44,798 nucleotides of DNA from Bacteroidales bacterium (GTDB lineage Bacteria; Bacteroidota; Bacteroidia; Bacteroidales; UBA7960), in the NCBI GenBank assembly GCA_007130125.1, contig SLSZ01000135.1, forward strand, positions 1-44,798, in the 5' to 3' direction. Shown here piece after piece: positions 42,339-44,743 of this stretch. Numbering within the stretch: position 1 is the stretch's first letter; every line of letters begins with the position of its first letter. The position numbers were made by a program, and so were the translations under genes. The notes below the pieces were generated by a model. It searched no databases and was not told where the DNA came from. It saw only the letters and a list, made by a program, of their open reading frames with translations.

Positions 42339-42391
42339 GGTTTTCTTCAAATATCTCTATATTGATTTTGATAAATAATTTTAAAAATTCT

Positions 42392-42419
42392 TGTCACAAA
42401 AATCCTGTTAAAAACGACT
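42392..42419 (+). promoter_or_regulatory. Putative autoregulatory ECF-sigma promoter
   Basis: TGTCAC-N17-CGACT about 20 bp upstream of the probable TTG start (42440) of the ECF sigma. Confidence 0.45.
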
Positions 42420-42439
42420 GTATAATAAAAGCATCTGTT

Positions 42440-43120
42440 TTGGGAAAATTCGAAGATATATACAACGAAAACTATAATACCATGCTTGGTGTTGCGCGCA
42501 AAATGATAGGCAATGGTTATGATGCCGGCGATATAATACACGATGTTTTTATTGATTTCTTCGAAAAATGTGATGAGAGGACAACAGTTGTGAAATATCC
42601 TAAAAGCTGGTTATATCGTGTTACTTTGAACAAGTGTGTTGATAGGTTAAGAAAAAGTAAAAACCATAAAGATATCGAGGATGTTCATGGTAAAACAGAC
42701 GAGAATGACCAGACGGAAATTTCAGAGAAAAAGGCTATTGTCAGCCTGGCACTGTCAAAACTAAAAACAAATGAAAGAGAATTGGCAGTTCTGTATAGTG
42801 AGGGGTTATCTTATAAAGAAATTGCCGGAATTGCCGGCATAAAACTTTCTTCAGTGGGAAAAATGCTGTCGCGCACATTAAAAAAAATTGAGCAGGTACT
42901 ATGCCTTTCGCAAAACCCCTGGGAAGAAGACATCCTCCTATTGTTGCAAATGTTGGTGACGAACTTGTTGTGGCTATTCCTGAAACAGGGGAAATACTCA
43001 TCTATGACCTGGATGGAAAACTTCTGTCAAAACAGAACATTGACTGGGCAAAAGATTATGTTTCAGTGGAGGAACAGAAAGAGATTCAGCGCAATGCTAT
43101 TGAGAGGTACCGTAATATAA
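42440..43120 (+). CDS. ECF-type RNA polymerase sigma-70 factor, natural stop apparently lost (about 75-aa read-through tail)
   Basis: Region 2 DIIHDVF..KSWLYRVTLNKCVD; region 4 LYSEGLSYKEIA..SVGKMLSRTLKK ending near 42895. The tail overlaps the next ORF by 220 bp. Confidence 0.75.
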   Translation: MGKFEDIYNENYNTMLGVARKMIGNGYDAGDIIHDVFIDFFEKCDERTTVVKYPKSWLYRVTLNKCVDRLRKSKNHKDIEDVHGKTDENDQTEISEKKAIVSLALSKLKTNERELAVLYSEGLSYKEIAGIAGIKLSSVGKMLSRTLKKIEQVLCLSQNPWEEDILLLLQMLVTNLLWLFLKQGKYSSMTWMENFCQNRTLTGQKIMFQWRNRKRFSAMLLRGTVI

Positions 43121-43506
43121 AGGAACCGCGTTTTGTGGAATGGGCATCCCCGGAAGAAAACCGTGCCGCACGTGATTATCTTGTGCGGGAGATGGAAAAA
43201 GACCTTGAAAAAATAAGCAAGCCAATACGTATGCCGTTTTTTTCAACCCTTATCCAAGACTCCGATGACAACCTGCTGTTTTTTGAGTTTCCAAAAGAAG
43301 AAGGAGCTAATAAGTTCAATGTATGGGTTTACCAGGATGGCGGGCAATTTGTAGCACAAAGCAGCTTCCATGTTGAAGGGTATGAGCTTGAAATTAAAAA
43401 CTCTAAAATGGCGTTTCATGATGGGTATTTGTATGCGCTGGTAAAGAAAAAAGGAGCTGAAGGCGTACCGCTAAGGGTAATGAGGTTTGAACTTAAAGGA
43501 CAATAA
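42901..43506 (+). pseudogene. C-terminal fragment of a larger (probably secreted, beta-propeller-like) protein
   Basis: Protein-like composition, but it begins abruptly at the end of sigma region 4. There is an in-frame TGA at 42889, and no signal peptide or leader. Confidence 0.55.
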
Positions 43507-43554: not shown

Positions 43555-43980
43555 AGGTGCAGAGCAACGTGACATAAAATCATCTTTTAATATCACGGTG
43601 CTCTGCACCTTTTGTTTAGCGAAGGTTGCATATTTGGCTGCAAATATCACGGTGCTCTGCACCTTTTATTTAGTAGGGAGAGCATTTTTGGCTACTTACA
43701 AATATTACGGTGCTCTGCACCTATTAGTTAACGGCGGCTGCATCTTTAGCTACAAATGTTGCTATGCTATGCACCTTTTAGTTAATGGCAGCTGCATCTT
43801 TGGCTGCAAATACTTGGTGTTCTGCATCTCTTATTTAGCCACGTATGGTCATTCAGCGAACGTTTTTACTCCTATCGTTATTAAAATTGTAACAAACCTT
43901 TCTTAGGTGCAGCGCACCGGCTATATTTATAACATTGAATGTTAATAAAGACTATCTAAGGTGCAGCGCACCGTGACATA
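43555..43980. repeat. Left array of REP-like 22-nt hairpin repeats (8 copies)
   Basis: Consensus AATRTYRCGGTGCTCTGCACCT. Minus copy at 43555; plus copies at 43589, 43643, 43701, 43755, 43809; minus copies at 43905, 43959. Confidence 0.9.
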
Positions 43981-44035
43981 AGTCATAGCATTTTATTTAT
44001 ATTTGCATAGTTATTAACCCAAAAAACCTTTAACC

Positions 44036-44494
44036 ATGGCAAACACCTACACACAATTTTACGCTCATCTTATATTTTCTCCAAAAAACAGACAAGCCTT
44101 AATTAAAAAGGCCTGGAAAGACGATTTAGAGAAATATATTACAGGAATAGTTCAACAAAATGGCCATAAATTGCTTTCTATAGGCAGCATGCCTGACCAT
44201 ATTCACATCTTTATTGGATATAATGTAAATCAGCTAATTCCAGAGTTAGTTGAGAAAATAAAAACATCAAGTAATGCCTGGATAAAGAATAATAATCTTT
44301 CAAAGAGCAAATTTGAATGGCAGCGTGGCTATGGTGCTTTTTCGCATTCAAGATCCAATATAGACAGTGTAGTTAAATATGTTTTGAATCAGGAGCAGCA
44401 TCACAAGAAAATGACTTTCAAAGAAGAATATTTAGAAATTCTTAAAAAGAATGATGTTGATTATGAAGATAGATACCTTTTTGAATTTTTTTGA
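44036..44494 (+). CDS. tnpA: Y1 HUH tyrosine transposase (IS200/IS605 TnpA-like; probable REP-associated RAYT)
   Basis: PDHIHIF HUH motif, IKTSS, WQRGYGAFS, catalytic YVLNQ; no tnpB nearby; flanked by hairpin repeats. Confidence 0.9.
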   Translation: MANTYTQFYAHLIFSPKNRQALIKKAWKDDLEKYITGIVQQNGHKLLSIGSMPDHIHIFIGYNVNQLIPELVEKIKTSSNAWIKNNNLSKSKFEWQRGYGAFSHSRSNIDSVVKYVLNQEQHHKKMTFKEEYLEILKKNDVDYEDRYLFEFF

Positions 44495-44530
44495 GGTCAT
44501 AGGGGTTTTTATTAATATAATTGTACTAAA

Positions 44531-44660
44531 AATGTTGCGGTGCTCTGCACCTATTAATTAGCTACGGCTGCATGTTTGGCTACATATGTTGCGGTGCTCT
44601 GCACCTATTACTTAGAGGAGGCTGCATATTTGGCTGCAAATGTTACGGTGCTCTGCACCT
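44531..44660 (+). repeat. Right array of REP-like hairpin repeats (3 copies, 54-bp period)
   Basis: WATGTTRCGGTGCTCTGCACCT at 44531, 44585 and 44639. Confidence 0.9.
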
Positions 44661-44701: not shown

Positions 44702-44743
44702 ATTTACCCTGTTAAATGTAATTTTGTATTTAACAGGGTGAAT
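44702..44743. repeat. 16-bp-arm inverted repeat (small palindromic element)
   Basis: ATTTACCCTGTTAAAT-N10-ATTTAACAGGGTGAAT, followed by TTTGAAC-type heptamers at 44744-44771. Confidence 0.7.

Follow-up and report, generated by a model that had tools for sequence, protein, structure and literature searches.

A low-copy IS200-lineage transposase gene amid inverted hairpin arrays in a Bacteroidales genome, and its relatives across Bacteroidota

What kind of genetic system is formed by a stand-alone Y1 transposase gene that is surrounded by numerous copies of one small hairpin? The question is raised by the right end of contig SLSZ01000135.1 (C249; handles starting with G, C and L denote genomes, contigs and loci), which in its entirety is the stretch of 44,798 nucleotides (nt) analyzed here and is hereinafter called the window. 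The contig comes from a metagenome-assembled genome (MAG) of a Bacteroidales bacterium (GCA_007130125.1; 2.82 Mb, 261 contigs, 91.9% complete, 37% G+C) and ends 304 nt past the stop codon of the transposase gene, tnpA, and 138 nt past the last hairpin unit. A preceding examination of the bare nucleotide sequence, the sequence-only reading, interpreted the locus as a domesticated nuclease with its own family of repetitive extragenic palindromic (REP) sequences, similar to the systems of REP-associated tyrosine transposases (RAYTs). The analysis described here points to a different answer, in which we have moderate confidence, namely that tnpA and its hairpins are a low-copy IS200-lineage element of a family widespread in Bacteroidota, the enzyme of which would process and locally amplify its own hairpins, with different hairpins in different clades. 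The system is IS200-type by descent and, in layout and function, similar to the REPtron, the arrangement of RAYT loci in which the gene lies amid several inverted palindromes of its own, as outlined in PMC8266576 and PMC6006769. In this genome it is nearly sedentary, with a single gene, 11 units around it and, away from the locus, one solo cluster of three.

The tnpA product is an IS200-lineage enzyme and not a RAYT by descent. It matches the Pfam family Y1_Tnp (PF01797) with an E-value of 2e-26 and 92.9 bits (cut-off 23) and passes the NCBIfam model transpos_IS200 (NF033573; 65.9 bits, cut-off 55) but not the model REP_Tyr_transpos (NF047646; 22.5 bits, cut-off 80). The open reading frame (ORF) is intact, and the protein contains the HUH motif in the form DHIH (H55/H57), followed by EWQ and by the tyrosine motif YVLNQEQHH (Y115), in agreement with the HUH and YxxNQ motifs of the sequence-only reading; residues H55, H57, W95, Q96, Y115, Q119, H122 and H123 are invariant in all 50 aligned sequences. 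The motif YVLNQ does not have the NP ending (YIxxNP) of class 2, the RAYT class. Among the solved structures, the closest relatives by sequence are ISDra2 TnpA (E 1.3e-7), IS200-type proteins from Sulfolobus, and IS608 TnpA (E 0.086), and the E. coli RAYT (4er8) is missing from the matches at E up to 1. A Foldseek search started with an AlphaFold model built from the alignment of 50 sequences (predicted local distance difference test score, pLDDT, 93.8) identifies the TnpA proteins of ISDra2, IS608 and IS200 as the top matches (E 1.6e-9 to 1e-7), with 4er8 in the 30th place (E 1.5e-5). Thus, the protein is not a RAYT: it fails the curated RAYT model and lacks the Y motif of these systems, and its hairpins lack their GTAG tag. 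A homodimer model (pLDDT 90) scores 0.71, with 0.00 for the best control, and at least 96% of the contacts recur between runs. Of the proteins with solved structures, 20 of 30 that form pairs and 1 of 23 that are single chains reach the mark used for this score; dimers of IS608 and ISDra2 TnpA are already solved, and the predicted dimer may owe its score to the likeness to these.

Within the Y1 transposases, the protein carries the signature of subclass 1.2. The classification of Quentin et al. 2018 (BMC Genomics 19:475, PMC6006769) characterizes this subclass by the motifs DH[IV]H, WQ and Y---Q--HH, a length of about 148 amino acids (aa) and a specific C-terminal tail, and gives for it a mean of 1.7 copies with 36% identity within a genome and a distribution in Bacteroidetes or Cyanobacteria. 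The tnpA product has DHIH, WQ, Y115-x3-Q-x2-HH, 152 aa and a conserved C-terminal tail.

The hairpins around tnpA are far too numerous to be fortuitous. The core GGTGCNNNGCACC (GGTGC-N3-GCACC) occurs 8 times in the window, whereas shuffled sequences give 0.01 and none of 100 shuffles reaches 8. The 22-nt unit built on this core is present in 11 copies, 8 of which are perfect hairpins; as the sequence-only reading had it, 8 are located to the left and 3 to the right of the gene. In the sense of the gene, the order is one (-) unit, five (+) units, two (-) units, tnpA and three (+) units, such that the three 3' units are oriented opposite to the two that immediately precede the gene (Table 1). 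The leftmost (-) unit, together with the stretch 43586-43610, forms an inverted dimer (43555-43610) with 25-nt arms that are 88% complementary and 6 nt apart; its predicted DNA fold has an energy of -22.2 kcal/mol (z -9.1), compared to -4.1 kcal/mol (z -3.5) for a single unit. The foot of the unit reads ATRTYRC here and AATATT-N-C in relatives, and the GTAG tag, the absence of which the sequence-only reading had pointed out, is indeed lacking. DNA similarity with L044, a locus encoding an 83%-identical relative, starts at the 43958 unit (window 43957-44491 corresponds to L044 1425-1956). A search against Rfam yields nothing at the gathering score, only sub-threshold matches resembling microRNAs on the inverted repeats. 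The stretches between the hairpins are themselves homologous from unit to unit (72-86% matches in the 54-nt arrays), which rules out a CRISPR-like interpretation with a 22-nt repeat and a 32-nt 'spacer'.

Table 1. Features of the tnpA locus (positions in the window; strand relative to the window)
Feature	Position	Strand	Remarks
Leftmost unit, inverted, degenerate stem GGTGC/GCAAC	43555..43579	-	1 mismatch to the 21-nt pattern
Distal upstream tandem array, 54-nt period, 4.7 units	43589..43843	+	same orientation as the downstream array
Perfect distal hairpins	43597, 43651, 43709	+	in units 43590, 43644, 43702
Degenerate distal units	43756 and 43812	+	
Proximal upstream unit (43905), inverted, perfect	43904..43919	-	GGTGC-AGC-GCACC on the + strand
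Proximal upstream unit (43959) nearest tnpA, inverted, perfect	43958..43981	-	
TATATTTG, candidate -7 promoter box	43998..44005	+	31 nt 5' of the tnpA ATG, read directly
tnpA, 152-aa Y1 HUH transposase, IS200 lineage, subclass 1.2 signature	44036..44494	+	ORF, Pfam, NCBIfam, motifs, fold
Downstream tandem array, 54-nt period, 2.5 units	44526..44660	+	units 44532, 44586, 44640
Perfect downstream hairpins	44539, 44593, 44647	+	

The association of the gene with hairpins of its own is a property of all Y1 genes of this genome. There are six of these, all with the subclass 1.2 signature, and the other Y1 genes encode proteins 35-52% identical to that of the window. Each is flanked by several copies of a distinct short G+C-rich hairpin, with a spacing of about 52-56 nt and opposite orientations on the two sides of the gene. 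When at least three perfect 5-bp hairpins with the same stem core are required on both sides within 700 nt, all six Y1 loci qualify, compared to 1 of 1500 random positions in the genome. The many identical tnpA copies with two ends each, which the sequence-only reading expected of an ordinary IS200, are not seen, the window's tnpA type being single-copy, and no TnpB domain (PF07282) is found in the 91.9%-complete genome, consistent with the reported lack of tnpB. One of the paralogs (G000:C212:1852-2292) contains an in-frame TAA stop and diverged residues in the Y motif, which makes it a probable pseudogene, albeit one that retains its flanking hairpins.

The repeat of the window is nearly confined to its locus, and the dispersal that the sequence-only reading had entertained is hardly seen in a count across the genome. 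Eight of the nine exact copies of the hairpin in the genome are at the tnpA locus, and a 21-nt pattern allowing up to 3 mismatches has 18 matches (3 for the reversed-pattern control), 10 of them at the locus. The only convincing outside copies form the solo (+)(+)(-) cluster at C218:17155-17332. No Y1 gene lies beside this cluster, which is located 16 kb from a different Y1 paralog on C218. Thus, of the claim that the gene has its own REP family, the association with cognate hairpins beyond chance holds, at all six paralogous loci and at 69 of 80 related loci described next; the dispersal does not.

The family is patchily distributed. A match is present in 26 of 41 genomes (40 related ones and that of the window), with many fragments and in-frame stops; the four genomes of the same genus contain no match above 52% identity and no ortholog of the window's tnpA, and proteins 77-83% identical to it occur in different families and orders. 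When one genome was scanned for each species, more than 539 related stretches emerged, and the best 80, that is, the closer relatives only (54-83% identity), were analyzed. By their titles, these loci come almost entirely from Bacteroidota, in line with the distribution of subclass 1.2, and represent many families of this phylum along with one Caldithrix and one Candidatus Edwardsbacteria MAG (L099 is the same place as L007, and L076 and L109, 96.8% identical over 3.4 kb, are probably one locus).

Hairpins sharing one stem occur within 900 nt of the gene at least three times in 69 of the 80 loci and at least twice in 79; in 51 loci, at least three are present on both sides. The GGTGC stem of the window is used by 53 loci. 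In a separate set of 25 loci from this genome and its relatives, 18 have at least three hairpins with the same stem. The commonest layout consists of (-) units at about -80 and -28, the gene, and (+) units at about +30 and +81; in many loci, arrays with a period of about 51 nt (51-54) or about 25 nt, which can reach 15-17 units, are added to this core. When orientation is assigned by the asymmetric C...T flanks, the units that lie no more than 160 nt from the gene are, across 105 loci, (-) upstream in 107 cases and (+) in 7, and (+) downstream in 113 cases and (-) in 9. Given these proportions, the gene-centered symmetry that the sequence-only reading noted at a single locus is a rule of the family. 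For example, L018 (G031:C26), with a family member 40% identical to the window protein, contains 15 hairpins ACCGC-N3-GCGGT, of which 11 distal (period about 48.5 nt) and 3 inverted proximal units are upstream and 1 is downstream, so that the pattern of distal, proximal and downstream orientations matches that of the window.

The stem arms covary, which is compatible with selection on the hairpin structure itself. When the unit next downstream of the gene is taken from each of 68 loci, these units align in register on their flanks, which were not used for their selection, and yield the consensus AATATT-N-C, a 5-bp stem arm, a loop of 3-4 nt (GCT is the commonest), the second arm, and T; on both sides of the gene, it is the flank end of the unit that is turned toward the gene. 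Of the 68 units, 63 retain the outer G-C pair and 67 the C-G pair that closes the loop, whereas each of the three middle pairs is changed on both sides in 18-22 units. As a check free of selection for pairing, a pattern based on the flanks alone has 624 matches in the 105 loci; in 223 of these, all five stem positions are complementary, with 16 different stems and a bimodal distribution. Mapped onto a FastTree protein tree of 92 rows, the stem type requires 30 changes, with a possible minimum of 22 and 41-43 in the ten shuffles listed. Nine loci that are fragments, pseudogenes or duplicates (L005, L009, L016, L021, L023, L097, L099, L103 and L109), and four loci with in-frame stops (L054, L093, L100 and L114) were omitted from the tree. 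Judged from these sequences, the agreement between stem and tree is one of clade specificity and not a formal test of co-evolution, since kin share labels anyway.

Some members of the family have stayed in place and others have moved. The C233 paralog is syntenic in a genome of the same genus, where the element is 92% and the flanks are 81-83% identical, and its upstream array is about 550 nt longer here, which suggests that this copy is stable and apparently under purifying selection, with turnover of the array. By contrast, the similarity between the C218 paralog and G001:C275 (81.5% identity) is limited to a 733-nt unit that ends at the outer hairpins and lies between unrelated flanks; at the G001 site orthologous to the downstream gene of C218, there is a solo pair of cognate hairpins without the gene. 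One MAG contains two copies that match at 88% identity across about 745 nt, with no relation between their flanks, and L012 (G035:C225:2841-4016) consists of a tandem pair of equal-scoring Y1 gene units at a distance of 723 nt, both with the same hairpins. In L007, the closest locus among the 40 related genomes (63% identity), the gene is located between two directly repeated modules of about 230 nt, each of which starts with a (+) unit and ends with a (-)-like unit, and the window locus agrees with this arrangement up to the contig end. Heptamer tandem repeats of the ACTCGTC/ACCCGTC and GATTGTA types are found within the hairpin modules by other family members (L004 (G000:C134) 2097-2176; L007 1290-1350 and 2060-2160).

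The extent of dispersal differs among genomes, as counts of the 15-nt core CGGTGC-N3-GCACCT in five further genomes show; the reversed-pattern control does not occur in any of them. All 4 copies in G045 and all 14 in G043 lie within about 2 kb on one contig; 15 of the 18 copies in G044 and 18 of the 22 in Mangrovibacterium marinum (G041) belong to one cluster that contains a Y1 gene. Niabella hirudinis DSM 25812 (G042), with three matches to the Y1 domain, has 68 copies on 22 contigs, just 4 of them at its tnpA and 64 elsewhere. Among 20 of the Niabella copies sampled over 105 nt, 18 are nearly identical, 1 is diverged and 1 shares the left part only; eight longer copies (L144-L151) align over about 0.3 kb and contain (-)(-)(+)(+) hairpins with 47-56-nt spacing and terminal inverted repeats but no gene. 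This repeat looks like a proliferated gene-less derivative, the mover being either the Y1 enzyme or, given the terminal inverted repeats, another transposase. At the population level, Logan contigs from four metagenome runs of soda or salt lakes (2012, 2019 and 2022) contain pieces of the locus, 472-1291 nt long, that differ from it at 0-1 positions. In three of the four runs, contigs overlapping window 43587-43981 also show a perfect (-) unit, 8 nt and a (+) unit at a depth of 13-20; this inverted dimer with the 8-nt gap is missing from the assembly and may be a variant of 43555-43610 in another strain or come from the right side of the locus, beyond the assembled part.

Taken with the lineage of the protein, these observations are best compatible, at the moderate confidence expressed above, with an element whose enzyme acts on its own hairpins. 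By analogy with related transposases, the enzyme, probably a dimer, would bind the hairpin and its 5' flank in single-stranded DNA, cut, and rejoin nearby. Cutting and rejoining could add or remove hairpin units locally and thus yield the arrays, would on rare occasions relocate the gene-plus-hairpin unit of about 0.73 kb, and might in some genomes spread gene-less derivatives that bear hairpins. Such a scheme would account for the covariation of hairpin and protein, the fixed orientation, the changes in array size and the solo and gene-less units. The flank AATATT is palindromic, so that both strands read a hairpin and AATATT facing the gene on either side, which may be relevant.

Several points weigh against this interpretation. 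We infer not only the strand used and the role of the enzyme, rather than slippage, in making the arrays but also binding and cleavage, the last two from the precedents of IS608, ISDra2 and RAYTs. It is the minimal unit (-)(-)gene(+)(+) that changes position between genomes, and with proximal hairpins on opposite strands, one-strand peel-and-paste of this unit is unexplained. For tandem arrays with periods of 25-54 nt, slippage or unequal crossing-over could suffice, with no enzyme involved. Fewer than three perfect hairpins are present at 11 of the 80 loci, and 3 of the 25 loci, one of them a pseudogene, have none. Because perfect pairing was the criterion by which the 68 aligned units were chosen, the value of 100% holds by construction, and the 1500 random control positions fall largely in coding DNA and were not matched for intergenic location. 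With only three units outside the locus, there is no sign of current spread in this genome, although repeats in a MAG of 261 contigs may be under-assembled and copies perhaps hidden; no excision joint is found in the Logan contigs of the four runs, and contigs cannot reveal rare variants.

A bolder version of the same interpretation, which we put forward only tentatively, is that subclass 1.2 represents a second lineage of REPtron type that arose within the IS200 class independently of RAYTs and spans Bacteroidota. Its minimal substrate, which would diverge together with each enzyme clade, would be about 25 nt long and comprise the palindromic AATATT flank, an invariable outer G-C pair, an equally invariable C-G pair that closes the loop and, between these, three pairs free to vary that serve as a specificity code; the enzyme would act on two strands, unlike IS608, as the symmetric orientation toward the gene would imply, and the arrays and solo pairs would be landing pads for the gene unit. 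The resemblance to REPtrons (RAYT/TnpA_REP, class 2; E. coli, S. maltophilia and Marinomonas MWYL1), as these are characterized in the sources cited above, includes the single-copy Y1 gene amid several inverted palindromes of its own and the presence in one genome of several divergent genes, each with its own repeat family. The nearest precedent for such locus-bound repeats is the class 2 REPtron Mb of Marinomonas, in which perfect 5-bp stems are concentrated by the gene (PMC8266576). This architecture, with at least two cognate palindromes, is found at the window locus and family-wide, and to this extent the claim of a RAYT-like system stands. It does not extend to the protein, which belongs to another class, with Y..NQ instead of Y...NP and with the RAYT model and the RAYT structure both poor matches; the units also differ in having the AATATT-N-C flank instead of a GTAG/CGTC tag, head-to-tail tandem arrays and almost no dispersal in this genome. 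The defining feature of REP families, high copy number with dispersal between genes, is absent from the window's genome and present in Niabella hirudinis. Likewise, derivatives similar to REPINs (REP doublets forming hairpins) or miniature inverted-repeat transposable elements are suggested by the inverted dimer at 43555-43610, the solo cluster on C218 and the hairpin quartet of the Niabella repeat, but there is no amplified population of these in the genome of the window.

With the published subclass 1.2, the genes described here share the motifs, the length of 148-152 aa, the C-terminal tail, the low copy number, the divergence of the copies (six at 35-52% identity) and the occurrence in Bacteroidetes. 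The difference is in the repeats: the table in PMC6006769 lists the subclass as "REP: no", an entry that the supplementary tables of manual inspection in that paper may qualify, and its description of the subclass includes no terminal structure, whereas here hairpins in a fixed orientation are present at 6 of 6, 18 of 25 and 69 of 80 loci. A literature search found no paper on hairpin arrays in subclass 1.2, subscription journals and supplements not being covered.

That the element is simply an autonomous IS200, with hairpins that are duplicated left- and right-end structures and standard peel-and-paste transposition, is unlikely, even though the likeness is considerable. The TnpA proteins of IS608 and ISDra2 are the closest in sequence and in fold, with HUH, a single catalytic Tyr and, according to the model, a dimer; the curated IS200/IS605 equivalog is passed; the element, about 0.7 kb long, has small hairpins close to either end; and tnpB is lacking, as in IS200 itself. 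The patchy distribution, with 77-83% identical relatives in other families and none in the four genomes of the same genus, and the discrete units of 733-745 nt at unrelated sites are also what such an element would produce, and the (+) units on both sides of the gene (43590-43830 and 44532-44660) are possible same-strand ends. In IS608, both ends are on the same strand. Here, however, the proximal hairpins are inverted about the gene in the family-wide proportions given above, and 2 to 17 hairpins, in arrays of up to 15-17 units, take the place of one per end on one strand. Furthermore, there is one copy per type, with paralogs 35-52% identical, whereas typical IS200 copies are 99.4% identical at a mean of 4.8 per genome according to PMC6006769. 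Some copies are syntenic between species, as is the C233 paralog, with the element more conserved than its flanks, and solo units and gene-less derivatives exist. In copy number and end structure, the element thus departs from an ordinary IS200.

Another explanation, which also appears improbable, denies that the arrays are substrates of the enzyme at all and takes them for repeats made by slippage or recombination, which function at most as terminators, insulators or regulatory sites of tnpA next to an inactive or decaying transposase. The regular 54-nt period with homology extending into the inter-hairpin parts and the difference in array length between sister species are typical of unstable tandem repeats; the last downstream hairpin followed by T8 resembles a terminator; and the Logan contigs lack excision joints. 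This explanation leaves unaccounted for the conserved orientation about the gene, the retention of one stem and flank in different orders despite the divergence of the spacers, the compensatory stem changes that track protein clades and the dispersed gene-less copies in Niabella, and is at odds with the invariance of the catalytic residues in 50 of 50 sequences. The T-rich tails after the hairpins of the locus (12 terminator-like sites, with 1.0 expected) are not conserved in the family alignment, which rules out a general terminator role.

The least probable explanation, and the one adopted in the sequence-only reading, is that an immobile, vertically inherited enzyme has been domesticated for a host function, with hairpins serving genome structuring, termination or RNA stability as proposed for RAYT/REP: the single copy with its own promoter-like box, the inverted hairpins that should block one-strand excision of the gene, the apparent purifying selection on the syntenic C233 paralog (92% compared to 81-83% in the flanks), the constancy of the locus from 2012 to 2022 and the T-rich tails all fit this idea, but the lack of an ortholog in the four same-genus genomes, the 77-83% identical relatives in other families and orders, the presence of members in just 26 of 41 genomes, the common pseudogenes and fragments (e.g., the TAA stop in C212), the elements at non-orthologous sites, the scarcity of hairpins outside the locus with which to structure this genome and the lack of conservation of the T-rich tails in the family speak against it.

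The immediate surroundings of tnpA contain a few further features. The sequence TATATTTG upstream of the gene fits what we take to be the Bacteroidota-type -7 box (consensus TAnnTTTG). Of 90 family loci, only 20 have the strict -7 motif in the 80 nt upstream of the gene, compared to 2 of 90 on the opposite strand, and a scan for sigma-70 promoters is uninformative (5 sites, with 4.6 expected). The 5' leader TTATTAACCCAAAA(A)ACCTT before the ATG (window 44010-44035) is retained between paralogs that are just 36-43% identical (it is also seen at G000:C168:11319, L003 and L017), and its 13-mer CCCAAAAAACCTT occurs 4 times in the genome; this leader may be a translational or regulatory element.

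Upstream, in window 42362-43506, an ORF for an extracytoplasmic function (ECF) sigma-70 factor with regions 2 and 4 extends to 252 aa, into an ORF of 201 aa. The latter matches just residues 226-427 of a 427-aa protein of relatives, and the 151-aa gene that precedes it there has no match in the window; the 201-aa ORF is a 5'-truncated gene or the DNA is rearranged at about 42900. The 201-aa gene is not found in the four genomes of the same genus and is present in G010, G007, G009 and G026, where it is followed by genes other than tnpA; the downstream gene in G010 has only a weak best match in the window's genome (28% identity). At the other side, the contig end (44680-44798) contains an inverted repeat (44702-44743) and a tandem repeat of TGAAnTTTGAACTT, and a similar piece is located at C168:17679-17790. 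The last 120 nt are multi-copy, with a Logan depth of 20-42 compared to 13.6 for the locus and with several differing continuations, which is probably why the contig breaks here; repeats may therefore be under-assembled.

In the 2018 classification of Y1 transposases, as presented in its table, subclass 1.2 is listed without repeats and its biology is left open. If the hairpins of the low-copy IS200-lineage element considered here are substrates of its enzyme, REP-like systems arose at least twice from IS200-type enzymes. With one flank, 16 different 5-bp stems and variation chiefly at three pairs, the family is a natural test bed for the reading of hairpins by HUH enzymes, which are already in use as sequence-specific tags for linking to single-stranded DNA. 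The finding also explains one class of intergenic tandem repeats and contig breaks in metagenome assemblies of Bacteroidota. Should the interpretation be correct, Bacteroidota would hold a large, hitherto unrecognized family of REP-like systems.

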